From a virus (taxonomy: Duplodnaviria > Heunggongvirae > Uroviricota > Caudoviricetes), in the IMG/VR virus record IMGVR_UViG_2778261594_000008: a stretch of 4,350 bases of DNA; one strand, written 5' to 3'. Numbering within the stretch: the first letter of the stretch is position 1; every line of letters starts with the position of its first letter. Positions 1-3,767 of this stretch are shown in pieces. The notes beneath the pieces were generated by a model. That model was not told the origin of the DNA, ran no database searches, and was given only the letters and a program-made list of their open reading frames with translations. The translations under genes and the position numbers were made by a program.

Positions 1-1218
1 ATGAACAAACTGAGCGATACCTTGCTAAGGAAACTTCATGGTAAGCCAGCGGAGAAAAACACGTTTTATAGCGATGGCGGAAATCTGAGCGTGAAATATT
101 TAACATCAGGGAAATTAACCTGGTATTTCACTTACAGGGCAGGAACGGGAAGAGAGACACGACCGGAACGTATTAAGCTGGGAAATTATCCTGATCTGAG
201 CCTGAAAGCAGCCAGGGAAAAAGCCGCCCAGTGTCGCGCATGGCTGGCGGAGGGGAAAAATCCACGCCATGAGATGAATTACGCCGTACAGGAAGCGTTA
301 AAGCCGGTAACGGTTGGCGATGCGCTCACCTACTGGCTTGAGTCGTACGTAAAGGAAAACCGCGTGGATTATATCGCCCTGAAAAGGCGACTTAATAATC
401 ACGTAATACAGTACATTGGCGCTATGCCGCTGGATAAATGCGAGCTACGGCACTGGCTGGCCTGTTTTGACCAGGTGGCAAAGCGAACACCTGTTACTGC
501 CGGATTCGTGCTACAGACATGCAAGCAGGCGCTTAAGTTCTGCCGGAGGCGGCGCTTTGCAATCAGCAACGTTCTCGATGATCTGAACGTGGCGGACGTT
601 GGGAAAAAACCGGATATAAGCGAACGTGTCTTAAGCACCAAAGAACTGGGCGAGTTATTGCAGGCGCTGGATAAAAAAATATTTTCTCCTTACTACGTCG
701 CGTTAATTCGCCTCCTGATTGTCTTCGGATGCCGGACAGTAGAACTGAGGTTATCGGAGATCAGCGAGTGGGATTTTACCGAAATGCTATGGACCGTTCC
801 GAAGGAGCACAGCAAAACGAAGGTTGCAATATTCCGGCCCATACCGGAAGCGATCCTGCCGTTCGTCACGCGGCTGGTGGACCAGAACAGGCACACGGGC
901 TTATTACTGGGGGAAGTGAAACAGGAGGCTAGCGTATCGCAGTACGGCAGATTAGCGCACAGGAGGCTAAAACACCCTCAATGGTCATTGCATGACATCC
1001 GGCGCACCTTTACAACCATGCTGAACGATTTAGGCGTTGATCCTCACGTCGTGGAGCAGCTTACAGGCCACCAGATGCCAGGAATGCAACGCGTGTACAA
1101 CCATTCCCGCTATATTGATGCGAAACGCAATGCGCTTGATATGTGGGTGGAGCGGTTGGAGATACTGGCGGGAACACATGAAAACGTAACCACGCTACCA
1201 GTAACCAGAATAAAATAA
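1..1218 (+). CDS. int: Tyrosine recombinase / site-specific integrase, P4 (IntA-like) family, 405 aa
   Basis: ORF fills 1-1218. N-terminus has the arm-binding pattern typical of P4-type integrases (DGGNLSV...LTWYFTY). C-terminus has catalytic box I R (FGCRTVELR) and box II HDIRRT...H...VYNHSRY with the terminal Tyr. Length fits full-length family members. The ATG is at window position 1, so the promoter and att site are not visible. Confidence 0.92.
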   Translation: MNKLSDTLLRKLHGKPAEKNTFYSDGGNLSVKYLTSGKLTWYFTYRAGTGRETRPERIKLGNYPDLSLKAAREKAAQCRAWLAEGKNPRHEMNYAVQEALKPVTVGDALTYWLESYVKENRVDYIALKRRLNNHVIQYIGAMPLDKCELRHWLACFDQVAKRTPVTAGFVLQTCKQALKFCRRRRFAISNVLDDLNVADVGKKPDISERVLSTKELGELLQALDKKIFSPYYVALIRLLIVFGCRTVELRLSEISEWDFTEMLWTVPKEHSKTKVAIFRPIPEAILPFVTRLVDQNRHTGLLLGEVKQEASVSQYGRLAHRRLKHPQWSLHDIRRTFTTMLNDLGVDPHVVEQLTGHQMPGMQRVYNHSRYIDAKRNALDMWVERLEILAGTHENVTTLPVTRIK

Positions 1219-1310: not shown

Positions 1311-1401
1311 GAGGCCAAAAAGAATACAGATTTGTAAGCTACTGATTTTTAATGCTCAGCTGGTTTTTTATACATTAGTGAATTACGCGTTAAAGTGTGC
1401 G

Positions 1402-1438
1402 AAAAAAGGCATAAAACAAGATTTTATGCCTTTGTATT
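1402..1438 (+). terminator. Possible intrinsic terminator or bidirectional hairpin between int and the AlpA-family gene
   Basis: Stem GGCATAAAA (1408-1416), loop CAAGA, stem TTTTATGCC (1422-1430), followed by TTTGTATT and preceded by AAAAAA. The stem is AU-rich (3 GC pairs of 9), so strength is doubtful. Confidence 0.3.
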
Positions 1439-1520
1439 AACATGAATTTAAATGATTTTATCCTGATTATTCCTCTTTCTGTAAACCATGCGACACCAAC
1501 ATTTGCCAACTCTGAATCAT

Positions 1521-1560
1521 CCTGACACAATCAGACACATCCCAACGCAATAGAACACGA
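1521..1560. repeat. Second 10-bp-phased array: GACACAA (1524), GACACAT (1534), AACGCAA (1544), AACACGA (1554)
   Basis: Four related 7-mers at exact 10-bp spacing, 35-70 bp upstream of the AlpA-family start. Candidate promoter-proximal binding sites. Confidence 0.6.
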
Positions 1561-1592: not shown

Positions 1593-1781
1593 GTGTTAAG
1601 CACTGATCGGTTTATACGTGAAAAAGAATGCGAAAAGCTAACAGGCCTTAGCCGCTCATGCCGCTACCGCCTGGAAAAGGCCGGACAATTCCCATCACGT
1701 CGTAAACTTGGTGGGCGTTCTGTTGGCTGGTCTTTATCTGAGGTTTTGGCCTGGAAGGATAGCTGCAAGGCAGTTCACTAA
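1593..1781 (+). CDS. alpA: AlpA / Vis-family helix-turn-helix regulator (excisionase-like), 62 aa, GTG start
   Basis: Protein ...EKLTGLSRSCRYRLEKAGQFPSRRKLGGRSVGWSLSEVLAW matches the AlpA family pattern (TG.SR...Y.L...G.FP....LG.RSVGW...E...W). RBS AAGGGGG at 1581-1587, 5 nt before the GTG. Sits directly downstream of a P4-type integrase, as is typical. Confidence 0.8.
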   Translation: MLSTDRFIREKECEKLTGLSRSCRYRLEKAGQFPSRRKLGGRSVGWSLSEVLAWKDSCKAVH

Positions 1782-1920
1782 AAAGACTGGCGGCACACAG
1801 TCGCCACACATCCACTAATACAGAGATATAACTATGAAGATTGAATATGCGCCCGAACGTGGGCGGGGATTCGTTCGCCCTGGTGAAACTGAAAAACAAC
1901 AAAATTGGGGTTTTTCAGGC

Positions 1921-1950
1921 ATAAAAAAAGCGGCCCCGATATGGAGCCGC
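1921..1950 (-). terminator. Canonical Rho-independent terminator for the leftward operon
   Basis: On the minus strand: GCGGCUCC, loop AUAUC, GGGGCCGC (8-bp stem with one G-U), then UUUUUUU. Lies about 75 nt downstream of the P1 stop. The plus-strand side is followed only by CTTTCT, so it is a weak terminator in that direction. Confidence 0.7.
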
Positions 1951-2024
1951 CTTTCTGAACAATTAACCTGCTGCGCCTTATGTGTATGTGATCCCAAACA
2001 TAAGCACGGGAATGATAGCCGCTA

Positions 2025-2228
2025 TCAGGCTGGTGGGCAATTACCTTGCTTGTTGGGGCCGTATTGTGCTGCCATTTTCATCCGTTCAGAACGTGAATAT
2101 TTTTTTAGAAACTCATCAAGGACAAAAGCGCATGGAGCGAATCTTTCTGATTCATGCTCGAGCGCCATATTTTCGTGCTCTCTGTTCGTTTTTTGCGATG
2201 GTGTATTGGTTGATTCTTTGTTGGTCAT
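2025..2228 (-). CDS. Small hypothetical protein P1 (67 aa), paralog of P2; unknown function
   Basis: ORF with ATG start. Shares with P2 the N-terminal MTN and a C-terminal motif R[FL][AV]P..F.L[DE][DE]F..KY.R. Preceded by the conserved 44-nt element and followed by the terminator. The overlapping plus-strand ORFs look like antisense artefacts. Confidence 0.6.
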   Translation of the reverse strand: MTNKESTNTPSQKTNREHENMALEHESERFAPCAFVLDEFLKKYSRSERMKMAAQYGPNKQGNCPPA

Positions 2229-2236
2229 TGTGTGTA

Positions 2237-2280
2237 CCTGTAAAGCAATGCGCCGGAGTTCCTCACGCCACGGCGCTGAT
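2237..2280 (-). repeat. Copy 1 of the conserved 44-nt intercistronic element (plus strand CCTGTAAAGCAATGCGCCGGAGTTCCTCACGCCACGGCGCTGAT)
   Basis: 41/44 identical to copy 2 at 2922-2965. As minus-strand RNA it has a 6-bp stem GCGCCG/CGGCGC with a 15-nt loop, then UUGCUUUACAGG leading into the P1 start. Confidence 0.85.
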
Positions 2281-2285
2281 GTTTT

Positions 2286-2465
2286 TTATTCTTTGGGTTC
2301 AATACCGCGTTGCTGTAATTCTTTTCGGATTATTCGTTTTATCCAAGCTGCTAAAGAGTCATCACCGTCTTGTTGTTGTGCTTTTTCCATCTTTTCCCGT
2401 AAGTCAGGATCTAAACGGAACTGGAAAGGAGGATTACCACGCCTTTCATTTTTGTGTGTTGACAC
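2286..2465 (-). CDS. Putative ribbon-helix-helix protein RHH-2 (59 aa, GTG start), paralog of RHH-1; may be degenerate
   Basis: Found by manual translation; not in the supplied ORF track. Sequence VSTHKNERRGNPPFQFRLDPDLREKMEKAQQQDGDDSLAAWIKRIIRKELQQRGIEPKE shows an RHH pattern (beta strand FQFRLDP, helix A, loop, helix B). Same length as RHH-1 and offset by exactly 685 bp. The only in-frame ATG (2390) would give a 34-aa fragment. The GTG overlaps the -35 of the opposing promoter. Confidence 0.4.
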   Translation of the reverse strand: MSTHKNERRGNPPFQFRLDPDLREKMEKAQQQDGDDSLAAWIKRIIRKELQQRGIEPKE

Positions 2466-2486
2466 GTCAATTACACTCCATATAAT
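2459..2486 (+). promoter_or_regulatory. Consensus sigma70-like promoter TTGACA-N16-TATAAT, rightward
   Basis: TTGACA at 2459-2464 and TATAAT at 2481-2486, both perfect hexamers with a 16-bp spacer. Homologous in position to the weaker rightward promoter of module 2 (TTGACG 3212-3217). Confidence 0.45.
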
Positions 2487-2494
2487 GTGTTTAT

Positions 2495-2506
2495 GTGTAT
2501 ATACAC
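2495..2506. promoter_or_regulatory. Perfect 12-bp palindrome GTGTATATACAC over the predicted transcription start; candidate operator
   Basis: Self-complementary. Flanked by GTGT (2487-2490) and ACACAC (2510-2515), giving an imperfect palindrome of about 30 bp. Half-site GTGT(A/T) resembles the module-2 operators. Confidence 0.4.
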
Positions 2507-2532
2507 ATTACACACAACTAGCACAAAAAACA

Positions 2533-2566
2533 ACGCCCCGCAGTGATGGGAACACATACGGGGCGT
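2533..2566 (+). other. GC-rich leader hairpin (module 1 copy): stem ACGCCCCG/CGGGGCGT, 18-nt loop, followed by TCTAACCAA
   Basis: Direct inverted repeat. Homologous to the 3281-3313 hairpin, including one compensatory pair change (C-G to A-T). No U-tract, so not a terminator. Confidence 0.5.
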
Positions 2567-2685
2567 CTAACCAAACCATTAATTGAGGTAACGATTATGG
2601 CTATAAAAGAGCATAGCTTACTCTTTATACACACACAAACGCCCCGGAAACGGAATAATCCGTTTCATAGTTCGGTTTTGTGCAC

Positions 2686-2913
2686 TCATCCTGGCGGTCG
2701 GTTTTTGCCGGATTTAAGCCGCCGTGGGTATTTATCGACAAAATCTTCAAGGGCAAATTTTTCTGGTGGCACTAAGCGCGGCGCTGGTGGTGGTATTTTT
2801 GTTCTGGTTAGTTCTTCCTCAAGTCTGGCGCAGGCTTCTGACTGCCTTTGCCGGATGATTTCATCATCTTGCGTTTGCGTGTCTTGTATTGGTGATAGTG
2901 TGTTGTTGGTCAT
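2686..2913 (-). CDS. Small hypothetical protein P2 (75 aa), paralog of P1; unknown function
   Basis: ORF with ATG start. AGGG RBS-like motif 8 nt upstream inside the end of the conserved element. Shares N-terminal MTN and the C-terminal F.LEDF.DKY.RR motif with P1. Confidence 0.65.
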   Translation of the reverse strand: MTNNTLSPIQDTQTQDDEIIRQRQSEACARLEEELTRTKIPPPAPRLVPPEKFALEDFVDKYPRRLKSGKNRPPG

Positions 2914-2921
2914 GATACTGC

Positions 2922-2965
2922 CCTGTAAAGCAATGCGCCGTAGTACCTCACACCACGGCGCTGAT
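2922..2965 (-). repeat. Copy 2 of the conserved 44-nt intercistronic element
   Basis: CCTGTAAAGCAATGCGCCGTAGTACCTCACACCACGGCGCTGAT. Differs from copy 1 at three positions, all in the predicted loop. Confidence 0.85.
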
Positions 2966-2970
2966 AGTGA

Positions 2971-3150
2971 TTATTCTGATTCTTTGGCCTTGCGACGCTG
3001 GCGGTATTCAACTTCCCGCTTTAATGCAGTTGTAACAAACTGCCCTGTACTTTCGCCGGGCATTTTTACCGCCTCAACATTGTTCATAACTTCATGTGGA
3101 ACCCTTGCCGCAACTGTTTGTGATTTTGCGTTTACTGCTTTTGTCGCCAT
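2971..3150 (-). CDS. Ribbon-helix-helix (Arc/MetJ/CopG-like) DNA-binding protein RHH-1, 59 aa
   Basis: MATKAVNAKSQTVAARVPHEVMNNVEAVKMPGESTGQFVTTALKREVEYRQRRKAKESE fits strand / helix A / G-x-S-T loop / helix B. ATG at 3150 has RBS GAGGGG 8 nt upstream. The track start at 3159 (GTG) would overlap that RBS, so the ATG is preferred. Confidence 0.7.
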   Translation of the reverse strand: MATKAVNAKSQTVAARVPHEVMNNVEAVKMPGESTGQFVTTALKREVEYRQRRKAKESE

Positions 3151-3198
3151 GTTGAGCACCCCTCATAAAAAACAAATGCAGTATGCAGGAAAAAAAAC

Positions 3199-3253
3199 AA
3201 GTGTTCAACACTTGACGTGTTTAACACCTCGATTTAAATTGGTGTTCAACACC
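3199..3253. promoter_or_regulatory. Divergent promoter region with three 11-bp palindromic operator-like sites GTGTT(C/T)AACAC
   Basis: Sites at 3201-3211, 3217-3227 and 3242-3252. Rightward promoter candidate TTGACG (3212-3217), 17-bp spacer, TAAATT (3235-3240). Leftward candidate TTGAAC (3208-3203 on minus), 17-bp spacer, CATACT (3185-3180). The operators overlap both. Confidence 0.5.
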
Positions 3254-3283
3254 TTATTTAGGCAAGGTGTAGAAACGACGAAA

Positions 3284-3310
3284 CCCCGCACTGTAGGAGC
3301 AGTAACGGGG
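3284..3310 (+). other. Leader hairpin (module 2 copy) in the 5' UTR of ORF A: CCCCG ... CGGGG with inner ACUG/CAGU stem, followed by TCTAACCAA
   Basis: Inverted repeat read directly; homologous to 2533-2566. Confidence 0.5.
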
Positions 3311-3342
3311 CTTCTAACCAACAACGTAAACGAGGAGCCGTT

Positions 3343-3537
3343 ATGGTTGCCGTAAATCATATACCACACCTTGTACACACACAAACGGCCTTTGTGTGGC
3401 GTTTTCTGGCACTGAGTGCCGGAGAATCTCAAATCATCCACGTAACCGCCTGGACGGAACGCGAAGCGCGTAACCTTTGCCCGTCCGGTTGTGTTGCTGT
3501 ATTTGCCGCCCGTATTCGCCAGGGGGTAGGCTTATGA
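3343..3537 (+). CDS. Small protein A (64 aa), possibly Icd-like (host cell division inhibitor-like) family
   Basis: RBS GAGGAG at 3332-3337, 5 nt before the ATG. Stop overlaps the start of ORF B (ATGA). The motif FVWRFLAL...WTEREAR...FAARIRQ recalls Icd-like small proteins of P4-like prophages; this is from memory and needs an HMM search. Confidence 0.6.
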   Translation: MVAVNHIPHLVHTQTAFVWRFLALSAGESQIIHVTAWTEREARNLCPSGCVAVFAARIRQGVGL

Positions 3538-3767
3538 GCCAGGAAATCACACTACAACAGGCAGCAGAACGCGCCCACCAAATCGAAGTTATTTGCGCAC
3601 TGGCAGAGGATTACCCTGGCATGATGACCGACAGCGAATCAGGGGCAATCATCGGCTTACTTAAACGCCTTAGCGGTGAGGTCTGCGTATTCCTGAGCGA
3701 TGAACAGGAAAGAAGAACGCTTATTTCTAACGAAAAAAAATGCGGAGGGGTACACCATGTGCAATAA
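3534..3767 (+). CDS. Small hypothetical protein B (77 aa), alpha-helical
   Basis: ATG at 3534 overlaps the ORF A stop (translational coupling), with AGGGGG upstream. The track's earlier ATG at 3477 lies inside ORF A and is less likely. Confidence 0.6.
   Translation: MSQEITLQQAAERAHQIEVICALAEDYPGMMTDSESGAIIGLLKRLSGEVCVFLSDEQERRTLISNEKKCGGVHHVQ

Follow-up and report, generated by a model that had tools for sequence, protein, structure and literature searches.

Two cassettes between alpA and the icd-like gene

The window, by which we mean the whole 4,350-nt stretch of DNA analysed, is the left arm of a PICI-type phage satellite of E. coli (int, alpA, icd-like), in agreement with the mobile element suspected in the initial annotation. 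Two small ORFs, P1 and P2, lie between alpA and the icd-like gene. Each occupies the distal position in a leftward cassette, where a repressor-like ribbon-helix-helix (RHH) gene is followed by a 57-nt spacer with a hairpin and then by P. The features are given below by their positions in the window.

1593-1781, plus strand: alpA, PICI activator family, convergent with the P1 cassette (PF05930, E=5e-18)
1834-2586, plus strand: stop-free frame, part 1 (eta-like leader ORF), antisense to cassette 1, starting 53 nt after the alpA stop
1923-1956, minus strand: intrinsic terminator of the RHH1-P1 unit, about 70 nt beyond the P1 stop, with an 8-bp GC stem and U7
2025-2228, minus strand: P1, small protein of 67 aa of the P family with the P1-type core ERFAPCAFVLDEFLKKY (ORF listing)
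2229-2285, minus strand: RHH1-P1 spacer of 57 nt, with a 42-nt element at 2237-2278 and the hairpin at about 2250-2276
2286-2465, minus strand: RHH1, first gene of cassette 1, Arc-like RHH protein of 59 aa (phrog_228, E=1.5e-6)
2459-2486, plus strand: putative promoter with a perfect sigma-70 consensus (TTGACA-16-TATAAT), rightward from the RHH1 start (promoter scan)
2493-2508: palindrome ATGTGTATATACACAT, candidate RHH1 operator flanking the promoter at 2459-2486 (sequence reading)
2597-3355, plus strand: stop-free frame, part 2 (eta-like leader ORF), antisense to cassette 2, starting at the ATG of an icd remnant
2686-2913, minus strand: P2, small protein of 75 aa of the P family with the P2-type core KFALEDFVDKYPRRLKSGKNRPPG (ORF listing, homologues)
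2914-2970, minus strand: RHH2-P2 spacer of 57 nt, with a 42-nt element at 2922-2963 and an 11-bp hairpin at 2935-2961 (loop UGAGG)
2971-3150, minus strand: RHH2, first gene of cassette 2, RHH protein of the YlcI/YnfO family (NF041551, E=1.6e-16)
3201-3252, no strand assigned: three GTGTTYAACAC palindromes (repeat family D5), candidate RHH2 operator/divergent promoter region
3212-3240, plus strand: promoter-like site TTGACG-17-TAAATT, overlapped by the GTGTTYAACAC palindromes (promoter scan)
3343-3537, plus strand: Icd-like ORF (P4 Kil/Eta C-terminal domain; NF033153, E=3.2e-18)

The role of alpA in PICIs is described in PMC6092414, and the Icd-like ORF heads the rightward replication operon as its first conserved gene. 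RHH1 stays under the curated cut-off for the YlcI/YnfO family (YlcI_YnfO_N, E=5e-4; NF041551, 20 bits against 30); weak sub-threshold matches to VapB and HicB-like antitoxins were also found. RHH2 reaches 60 bits against the same NF041551 cut-off of 30 (phrog_949, E=2.7e-22) and carries the YlcI/YnfO annotation in a relative. Its start is the ATG at 3150, with an alternative GTG at 3159. The YlcI/YnfO family, which is listed among the cf-PICI accessory genes in Enterobacter, includes RHH2, the neighbour of P, and not P itself.

Both P ORFs were confirmed at these positions on the minus strand, and in a 96%-identical E. coli island they correspond to the RefSeq hypothetical proteins WP_000182306.1 (P1) and WP_072096427.1 (P2). 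They start with MTN, continue with an S/T/Q/N-rich N-terminus, contain F[AV]L[DE][ED]F[LV].KY.R and end in PPA and PPG. The initial annotation had described the MTN start, the low-complexity N-terminus and the C-terminal motif correctly, with a regular expression that is off by one residue for P2: in the profile alignment, F30-A-P-C-A-F of P1 stands opposite V48-P-P-E-K-F of P2, and the leading R is unaligned. The PP[AG] ending, also taken there as common to the pair, is no family feature, PPG being typical of the P2-type tail and the P1 tail being a different variant in the family alignments.

A 75-nt direct repeat (2218-2292 and 2903-2977, 81% identity) comprises the spacer 5' of each P and the first four codons. 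The MTN common to P1 and P2 is therefore a conserved DNA element continuing into the first codons and does not count as independent protein conservation. The coding DNA flanking this repeat is essentially unalignable between the cassettes, and the core motif is kept at the protein level though its DNA is only about 67% identical (count from the sequence). From the pair alone the similarity of P1 and P2 is marginal (BLASTP, E=0.012, 25% identity, 41% gaps). On the other hand, profiles of the P1-type and P2-type subfamilies align with 93.8% probability in hhalign (E=1.7e-7), over a core of 21 residues (21 columns). These alignments show P1 and P2 to be related small-protein genes of one family, the paralogous pair of unrecognised family that had been proposed at the outset.

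The tandem in the window consists of two whole regulatory cassettes joined at the icd 5' remnant and is not a local gene duplication. It is also a rare arrangement, two units being present in only 8 of 125 loci, which speaks against the earlier view that the paralogues are kept in tandem.

The P family, its spacer and its slot

The P family comprises 116 clusters at 90% identity, all of them from E. coli, Shigella or E. albertii, and is represented by only 21 sequences among 1.84 billion proteins. The fetched loci contain 59 distinct P coding variants, every one intact, so that the ORFs are conserved in related elements. Members are proteins of 55-92 aa with the core motif P..FAL[ED].F[LV].K[YH].R, which both P1 and P2 have. 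A pattern scan of genome contigs for taxonomic breadth returned one Shigella locus only; as the pattern was perhaps too strict, this says little on the spread outside Escherichia/Shigella.

No family match was obtained for P1 and P2 in Pfam, NCBIfam, PADLOC or the PDB by sequence-profile search; in PADLOC, P1 gave only a spurious sub-threshold match to Cas8g (17.6 bits) and P2 nothing. In PHROGs, P1 matches phrog_21027 (E=2.2e-12), as do the common MTDKEL variants (E=1.2e-15), and P2 and the P2-type members have no match to this profile. The profile spans the P1-type N-terminus and the core only, with no functional information attached. One family member shows a weak match to ParD, and a JGI record labels a member of the family RelE.

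AlphaFold2 predicts for P2 a helix at residues 8-38, a Pro-rich linker and a short helix at 54-61 (pLDDT 76, pTM 0.35), and for P1 it is confident only at the core helix (about residues 31-50). According to these models, P would be a non-globular helical peptide, with a variable N-terminal helix, a conserved amphipathic helix formed by the core motif and a basic tail. A Foldseek search of the P2 model against BFVD and PDB found nothing below E=0.8, as expected for a non-globular model.

The 42-nt hairpin element within the 57-nt spacer is about 90% conserved, a value to be read knowing that the search pattern fixed 21 of the 38 positions it spanned, which makes the element look more conserved than in an unbiased sample. 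About 86 distinct combinations of an upstream RHH, this element and a downstream P were found. An ATG follows at a distance of exactly 8 nt in 133 of 134 copies, with the AGG spacing kept, a rule that is partly ascertained since these copies were gathered with a pattern for the hairpin element itself. The sample anchored on RHH has the identical fixed spacing of 57 nt in 50 loci. In cassette 1, the Shine-Dalgarno-like AGG lies 8 nt 5' of the P1 ATG, and the element scores 92.7 bits with the covariance model.

The RHH2-P2 hairpin folds with -24.3 kcal/mol on the P-sense strand (z=-2.9; z=-0.7 on the opposite strand) and was scored as a weak terminator-like site. Its upper stem varies freely in the family, with compensatory changes in two rare variants only, and the covariation is not significant, 36 of 500 shuffles reaching the observed score. 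The terminator at 1923-1956 folds with -26.2 kcal/mol (z=-5.2), and none of 200 shuffles folds equally well. When the whole window was scanned against Rfam (E<=1), neither C4 nor isrK nor any family on the spacer leader was found, and a search of 50,697 phage records gave no match to the conserved leader.

Two known kinds of element were considered for the spacer and rejected. For a sar-like antisense RNA, no plus-strand promoter-like site exists upstream of the hairpin, and a good plus-strand U-tract is present in cassette 1-type spacers only. For a nut-like boxB/boxA site, the post-hairpin UUGCUUUACAGG is loosely boxA-like, and the commonest variant, UUGCUAUGCAGG, deviates further. As a side observation, the 57-nt spacer is in frame and stop-free, which would allow read-through from RHH to P; for one conserved sequence the chance probability of this is about 0.4.

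Islands differ in what follows RHH. In the metagenome sample anchored on RHH, P is at the fixed spacing in 50 of about 73 evaluable loci, and the remaining loci have a terminator directly 3' of RHH or other small ORFs, P being missing from about a third of the RHH-bearing islands. Two loci (L107 and L138) have a lipoprotein-like small ORF after a degenerate hairpin in place of P, and a third (L004) has tandem P units without RHH between them. The slot may therefore contain RHH alone with the terminator, RHH with one P, RHH with two P or RHH with the lipoprotein-like ORF, which means 0 to 2 P genes per cassette. N-terminal, core and tail types of P recombine in a mosaic way, and the 12 RHH types form 27 combinations with N-terminal types and 33 with tail types. 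P types thus assort freely with RHH types via recombination at the conserved spacer. This free assortment, the absence of P from part of the islands and its replacement by the lipoprotein-like ORF indicate that P is an optional accessory gene rather than a cognate toxin or an obligate co-regulator. An accessory or effector role, the latter suggested initially, fits such an optional, swappable slot, and no anti-defence or toxin family was matched in PADLOC.

Reading frames on the two strands

Both cassettes lie antisense to a long stop-free frame on the plus strand. In the window this frame is split: the TGA that closes part 1 overlaps a Shine-Dalgarno-like GAGG belonging to the ATG of the icd remnant (2597), and part 2, which is not in the icd frame, ends 10 nt beyond the true icd ATG (3343). 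In many relatives, such as L002, the long frame is in frame with the Icd-like domain. The antisense frame is open for at least 204 codons in 111 of 111 contexts, and it spans the way from alpA to icd in 65 distinct intervals. The independent RHH-anchored sample gave the same result, with 57 of 57 distinct loci open for at least 195 codons; only 14% of control ORFs reach 190. In non-coding DNA upstream of RHH, too, stops are depleted 10-fold, 1,399 codons having 10 in this frame, with 104 and 108 in the two others. For RHH2, the 60 non-coding codons upstream have no stop, and the two alternative frames have 7 and 3.

In stretches without a minus-strand gene opposite, the antisense frame has no codon periodicity (46/51/44). 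A long plus-strand ORF coding for a protein under selection was considered and rejected, the product being Cys/Ser-rich with no family match and the frame aperiodic where unoverlapped. The opposite-strand frame appears to be selected for openness only. PGAP sometimes annotates it as an Icd-like or ash pseudogene, omitting P.

In the sense frame, dN/dS is 0.36 for P and 0.08 for the RHH control set, and in the antisense frame 0.52 and 0.155; these pairwise counts come from loci that are not phylogenetically independent and are blurred by recombination. Variable alleles are distributed over the codon positions as 48/34/68 in P and 60/22/219 in RHH, and non-synonymous changes have a mean BLOSUM score of +0.11 when read in the P frame and of -0.99 when read antisense (+0.28 and -0.77 for RHH). 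The third codon positions of part 1 of the stop-free frame coincide with those of P1 and RHH1, as computed from the coordinates, and owing to this coincidence between P and the antisense frame the two readings are only partly separable. Even so, the pattern of substitutions speaks in favour of P as the coding frame, with moderate constraint on it, and the sequence statistics suggest that P is translated. A mean dN/dS of 0.36 is fairly relaxed, and P is an orphan confined to one genus, in line with what a young or marginal gene would show. Together with the conservative non-synonymous changes and the mosaic diversity, this value does not agree with the diversifying selection assumed in the initial annotation.

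The initial annotation had also allowed for the true gene being on the opposite strand. The part of this idea that stands is the strong selection on the stop-free frame. Given the lack of protein-level constraint on the antisense frame and the substitution pattern in the P frame, the antisense frame does not displace P. That the P ORFs are non-functional as proteins, with either the leftward antisense transcript and its hairpin, or the act of transcription, being what matters, or with only the opposite-strand frame coding, we consider unlikely. This would agree with the strongly selected frame being stop-free in every variant, with PGAP pseudogene calls sometimes replacing P, with the orphan status and relaxed constraint of P, and with the conserved part 5' of P being a nucleotide element. 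Against it speaks the periodicity of the P region, where changes are conservative in the P frame only, compared with the aperiodic unoverlapped antisense frame. Moreover, all 59 coding sequences are intact, the start codon keeps its distance to AGG in all copies of the element but one, and the core motif is kept between subtypes in protein over poorly conserved DNA.

Possible roles of P

On balance, we lean towards P being the distal accessory gene of the leftward RHH-hairpin-P cassette, in an optional slot antisense to the open leader frame, and encoding a trans-acting factor of the maintenance state. The cassette would be transcribed from a divergent promoter/operator region that it has in common with the rightward icd-replication operon, and the repressor and P would then be produced jointly in the quiescent island. 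The protein could act in trans, its conserved helix and tail docking on a conserved partner. Most likely it would be a maintenance-state accessory factor, responsible for exclusion of or interference against a phage or for damping of induction. The hairpin may work as an attenuator or as a stabiliser. The frame from alpA to icd is probably kept open to let ribosomes trail RNA polymerase, by which transcription of the AlpA-driven operon would be protected from ending too early, an anti-termination role suggested by the selection for openness without codon periodicity.

The last point has a parallel in the vis-eta/kil region of satellite phage P4, where, as in the window, a long ORF connects the end of vis, the alpA homologue, or a point close to it, with the Icd-like/Kil ORF. 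As the work of Forti et al. (1999) is summarised in PMC10111431, translation of eta prevents premature termination in P4. The Icd-like domain (NF033153) is found at residues 161-208 of the P4 eta ORF (E=1.4e-20); BLASTP of the window Icd against the annotated P4 'cI' ORF gave nothing, and the common domain is revealed by the NCBIfam profile. Unlike P4, which has C4/isrK (CI RNA/seqA), the window has no match to these RNAs at the threshold used and has instead the antisense cassettes within the leader frame. Also in contrast to P4, where the ORF runs in frame into icd, the frame in the window is split in two and stops shortly beyond the icd ATG. This likeness belongs to the opposite strand and not to P.

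For the cassette itself, the closest layout is that of arc-ant in immI of phage P22, where one operon of the immunity region comprises a small gene for an RHH repressor and, past a short intercistronic region with regulatory function, a downstream gene. However, P22 Ant is a large antirepressor unrelated to P, and the P22 intercistronic region encodes the sar antisense RNA, for which no promoter of that type was found in our spacers; P is, besides, optional. Accessory genes co-transcribed with the prophage repressor are known from rexAB of lambda and nun of HK022. P is likewise optional, variable and placed 3' of a presumed maintenance repressor, presumably expressed in the quiescent state, and its slot also has an alternative cargo, here the lipoprotein-like ORF. 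It has no sequence or fold relationship with these genes, and its host element is a satellite and not a phage.

Among the other roles to be weighed, P could be a core regulator of the switch, i.e. an RHH co-repressor or anti-repressor or an AlpA antagonist made from the maintenance operon and holding induction off. Its position between alpA and icd, apparently co-transcribed with a repressor-like RHH and convergent with alpA, would suit such a regulator, and the conserved helix offers a possible contact to a conserved protein of the island. No master repressor has been reported for PICIs of Gram-negative bacteria, and published work calls the existence of one unclear (PMC6092414). We regard this role as unlikely, since about one third of the RHH-bearing islands do without P or have the unrelated lipoprotein-like ORF in its slot, P types are independent of RHH types and the number of P genes per cassette varies from none to two. 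The same independence weighs against a type II toxin-antitoxin-like pair stabilising the island, with RHH as antitoxin and autorepressor and P as a small downstream toxin, which seems to us very improbable indeed. Gene order and sizes resemble modules with RHH antitoxins, and the weak matches of RHH1 to VapB/HicB-like proteins, the weak ParD match of one P-family member and the RelE label of JGI point the same way, but the partners do not co-vary, RHH is often alone and P occurs in tandem without RHH between. In addition, no toxin family or fold matches P, whose models are extended helices rather than a folded toxin.

The stretch RKRRRRK just before the core in the commonest P1-type variants recalls the arginine-rich proteins N and Nun. 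A factor of this kind would bind the pentaloop hairpin of its own leader, as in lambda nutL-N, and modify termination or translation; the hairpin directly 5' of P does have a 5-nt loop and a GC-rich stem, uses G-U pairs and is more stable in the P-sense RNA. The arginine-rich stretch is, however, absent from P1 and P2 of the window and from the whole P2-type, whereas the hairpin is conserved in all, and no boxA consensus beside the hairpin, Rfam match or significant covariation was found. Such a factor is accordingly quite unlikely.

A more far-reaching possibility, to which we give little credence, is that the RHH-hairpin-P cassettes in the stop-purged leader are the missing maintenance/immunity switch of Gram-negative PICIs. 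The AlpA-driven operon would be kept off through RHH repression and convergent transcription, and P would represent a new class of small effectors, perhaps overprinted on the leader frame, that act on the helper phage or on AlpA and set the specificity of induction or exclusion. If true, some 1.5 kb would be translated on both strands, each strand being selected in a different way.

The region comprises an unstudied candidate repressor gene and a small-protein family. If P affects helper or competitor phages, it would be a new small-protein player in satellite-phage conflicts, with relevance to delivery vehicles based on PICIs. The two-strand arrangement is a natural case for the analysis of antisense overlap, with one frame selected for protein and the other for openness, and it bears on whether translation-coupled anti-termination, known from phages P4 and P1, governs PICI induction. 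In the other E. coli islands examined, RefSeq leaves P unannotated or replaces it by opposite-strand pseudogene calls. Of 5,426 complete E. coli genomes, 1,674 have the conserved leader, among them genomes of O157 and of further pathogenic lineages.

The satellite island and its two cassettes

The gene layout of the window, an E. coli PICI-type satellite arm, taken together with a 96%-identical E. coli locus, is on sequence evidence that of the Gram-negative PICIs with capsid genes, as given in PMC6092414 and 10.1101/2022.09.08.507074. Beyond the window, this locus encodes DUF4222, a DUF927 primase, SSB, major capsid, head decoration and small terminase proteins, and its island has about 12 kb and is inserted at tqsA. 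Parts of the window are present in 1,753 of 5,426 complete E. coli genomes, and the complete two-cassette arrangement (at least 80% window coverage) in only 45. We consider the context the most interesting outcome: two cassettes, each a ribbon-helix-helix (RHH) repressor gene followed by a P gene, lie antisense in a stop-purged, eta-like leader from alpA to icd.

Features of the window
1-1218, tyrosine integrase gene (int), at the window start
1593-1781, AlpA-family gene (alpA)
1834-2586, plus strand, long ORF antisense to cassette 1
1923-1956, minus strand, strong intrinsic terminator (z=-5.2), ~70 nt past the P1 stop
2025-2228, minus strand, P1, ORF of 67 aa
2286-2465, leftward, RHH1, Arc-like (phrog_228, E=1.5e-6)
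2459-2486, rightward, perfect sigma-70 promoter (consensus match), adjoining the palindrome ATGTGTATATACACAT
2543-3355, plus strand, long ORF antisense to cassette 2 (2597-3355 from the icd-remnant ATG)
2597-2650, plus strand, icd-like 5' remnant starting MAIKEHSLLFIHTQTP, which links the cassettes and restarts the open frame
2686-2913, minus strand, P2, ORF of 75 aa
2971-3150, leftward, RHH2, YlcI/YnfO family (NF041551, E=1.6e-16)
3212-3240, promoter-like site (consensus match), overlapped by three GTGTTYAACAC palindromes
3343-3537, Icd-like ORF (icd), near the window end, with small rightward ORFs

The int-alpA interval contains three direct repeats of ~21 nt (1263-1303 and 1513-1533, plus strand; core ACGTGACACAATCA / CCTGACACAATCA), which, lying upstream of alpA, are candidates for AlpA binding sites or for arm-type sites of the integrase. 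A weak Rfam match to the Brucella sRNA BSnc120 at 1369-1447 (plus strand; 27.9 bits, gathering score 114) is due to a perfect 12-bp hairpin 3' of int, AAAGGCATAAAA/TTTTATGCCTTT (1405-1433), which is probably a terminator and not this sRNA.

The P family

Both P1 and P2 are present as ORFs, and the initial annotation was right in relating them. Their pairwise similarity is marginal (BLASTP E=0.012), each has many E. coli homologues of its own, and the P1-type and P2-type profiles align with 93.8% probability (E=1.7e-7), sharing the core P..FAL[ED].F[LV].K[YH].R in a joint alignment. Judged by these profiles, the two are homologous. The 42-nt leader element CAGCGCCGTGGYGTGAGGWACTMCGGCGCATTGCTTTACAGG is found upstream of both, and the first P codons are likewise conserved as DNA. 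This block of spacer plus first codons has 81% identity across 75 nt between the cassettes, with flanking genes that cannot be aligned as DNA, and its extension through the first codons explains the common "MTN" start.

An exhaustive profile search returned 21 P matches among 1.84 billion representative proteins, and a profile search of a 5.8-billion-protein collection returned 116 clusters, all labelled hypothetical, the named ones being exclusively from E. coli, Shigella and E. albertii. No relative was found in Pfam, NCBIfam, PADLOC or PDB; phrog_21027, a PHROG with no assigned function, is matched by P1-type members only. The AlphaFold2 models are non-globular. That of P2 (pLDDT 76, pTM 0.35) has a long helix at 8-38, a proline-rich linker, a short core helix at 54-61 and a disordered basic tail, and that of P1 is confident over the core helix only; a fold search with the P2 model gave no match. 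The modelled combination of a variable helix, a conserved amphipathic helix and a basic tail suggests a small adaptor or inhibitor docking on a partner.

P and the frame on the opposite strand

The initial annotation raised the possibility that the true gene lies opposite to P. A long open frame does exist there, but it lacks codon periodicity where no minus-strand gene overlaps it, and the coding signature favours P. All 111 distinct element contexts contain an antisense frame that stays open over 204 codons or more (median 344). In a second sample of 80 metagenome loci, anchored on the RHH protein independently of the leader element, all 57 distinct loci keep this frame open over 195 codons or more; of the control long ORFs in these loci, only 14% are as long as 190 codons (median 98). 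Over 65 distinct alpA-icd intervals, the frame typically opens directly behind the alpA stop codon and extends up to the icd ATG or, in-frame, to the icd stop. When 15 representative RHH and P genes are resampled synonymously or codon-shuffled, 13-22 antisense stops are expected, and one was observed. In the DNA from the RHH start to the icd ATG, where the minus strand is non-coding, the frame contains 10 stops in 1399 codons (18 sequence clusters), against 104 and 108 in the other two frames, and substitutions show no codon periodicity (46/51/44). The frame is therefore selected for openness and not for its protein.

Variable alleles by codon position are 60/22/219 for RHH (dN/dS 0.08) and 48/34/68 for P (dN/dS 0.36). 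Amino-acid changes read in the sense frame are conservative (BLOSUM +0.28 for RHH and +0.11 for P), and those read antisense are not (-0.77 and -0.99). The P pattern resembles that of the RHH control with weaker constraint, the separation from the antisense frame being imperfect because the third codon positions of both strands coincide. On these patterns we conclude that P is, in all probability, a real gene and the opposite frame a presumably translated but sequence-indifferent leader. RefSeq (PGAP) is inconsistent here: the antisense frame is called an "Icd-like" or "ash family" pseudogene, with P unannotated, in the related loci L002 (2854-3447) and L004 (2333-3700), and in L003 (3059-3756) the P ORF lies within a wholly unannotated stretch.

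In position and end point, the window frames are similar to the translated eta leader ORF of P4 (L126 8168-8812, minus strand), which overlaps the end of the alpA homologue vis and carries, C-terminally, the same Icd-like domain as icd of the window (NF033153, E=1.4e-20). The first window frame terminates in a TGA that overlaps the Shine-Dalgarno-like GAGG before the icd-remnant ATG, the second 10 nt beyond the icd ATG, so that closely spaced ORFs follow one another from alpA on. Unlike in P4, no C4 or isrK RNA was detected in the window, and a protein-repressor cassette is antisense within the leader instead. Zones of this kind are mostly unidirectional according to PMC10111431, where antisense nesting is not mentioned, and neither the RHH-P cassette nor P was the subject of any paper that we found. 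In L003, a CFT073-like island, the alpA-side long frame holds a Bro-N/antirepressor-motif-like stretch, …SIISESGFYKLI… (~3300-3650, locus minus strand), which fits the "Bro zone" of PMC10111431; its sequence suggests that the leader frame may absorb gene fragments.

Cassette exchange, predicted regulatory signals and the possible role of P

P1 and P2 each start 57 nt downstream of their RHH gene, a spacing also found between RHH end and P ATG across the fetched loci. The leader element occurs in 1,674 of 5,426 E. coli genomes, with up to 7 copies per genome, and in none of 50,697 phage records. Conservation in related elements, on which the initial annotation had staked its reading, is clear: in 133 of the 134 element copies from 125 fetched loci, an ATG exactly 8 nt 3' of the element opens a P-family ORF. 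These loci contain 12 RHH types, six P N-terminal types and nine P tail types in 27 RHH x N-type and 33 RHH x tail-type pairings, so that free shuffling by recombination at the conserved spacer and inside the P core is indicated. The RHH stop and the P ATG share a frame, with 19 stop-free intervening codons (2229-2285 and 2914-2970, minus strand); read-through would fuse both proteins, though this single conserved sequence may be open by chance.

The window's units are complete cassettes of different types, joined via the icd-like remnant. The same junction is found in L107 beside another cassette, and by sequence it looks like a regular joint of tandem cassettes. The initial annotation had taken P1 and P2 for accessory members of one family in a mobile element, which holds, typically kept in tandem under diversifying selection, which does not: two units occur in only eight of the 125 loci, and neither the P dN/dS nor the conservative sense-frame changes give any sign of such selection.

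In the RHH-anchored sample, a P-family ORF follows RHH at the fixed spacing in 50 of ~73 loci with sufficient downstream sequence; the others have a canonical terminator directly 3' of RHH or unrelated small ORFs. In L107 (5408-5623) and L138 (~2690-2890), the place of a P gene is taken by a 50-aa ORF behind a degenerate spacer hairpin (42.8 bits in L107). This ORF has a signal-peptide/lipobox-like N-terminus, MLKLKKHVPMMVALIITIFLLISC..., and a strong Shine-Dalgarno sequence; without any family match, it looks like an alternative cargo of the P slot. Two consecutive P units are found in L004 and L184. Missing, replaced or doubled in relatives, P is therefore an optional passenger, open to replacement, downstream of the repressor gene. 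This counts against a TA-like toxin paired with a cognate antitoxin, and against P as a core component of the switch or indispensable co-regulator. Further rival readings, of low probability, are P as an N-like RNA binder, or as a non-functional ORF with a role at the RNA level. Our best estimate is that P would act as an accessory factor of the maintenance state.

The palindromes at the divergent promoters are likely RHH operators, and the leftward unit is predicted to end at the 1923-1956 terminator. On the P-sense RNA the spacer hairpin folds more stably (z=-2.9) than on the other strand (z=-0.7); it is flagged as a weak terminator and has no significant covariation. Our best guess is an intercistronic attenuator or stabiliser setting the RHH:P ratio. 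A second terminator-like hairpin with a U-tract (1785-1807, minus strand), directly beside the alpA stop codon, could stop leftward transcription before antisense entry into alpA. A conserved GC stem-loop, CCCCG...CGGGG, with CKTCTAACCAA behind it (repeat family D4, 81% identity), is present at 2530-2575 and 3283-3321 (plus strand), ~25-30 nt upstream of both the icd-remnant and icd ATGs. It has no Rfam match and could be an RNA element in the leader of the rightward operon.
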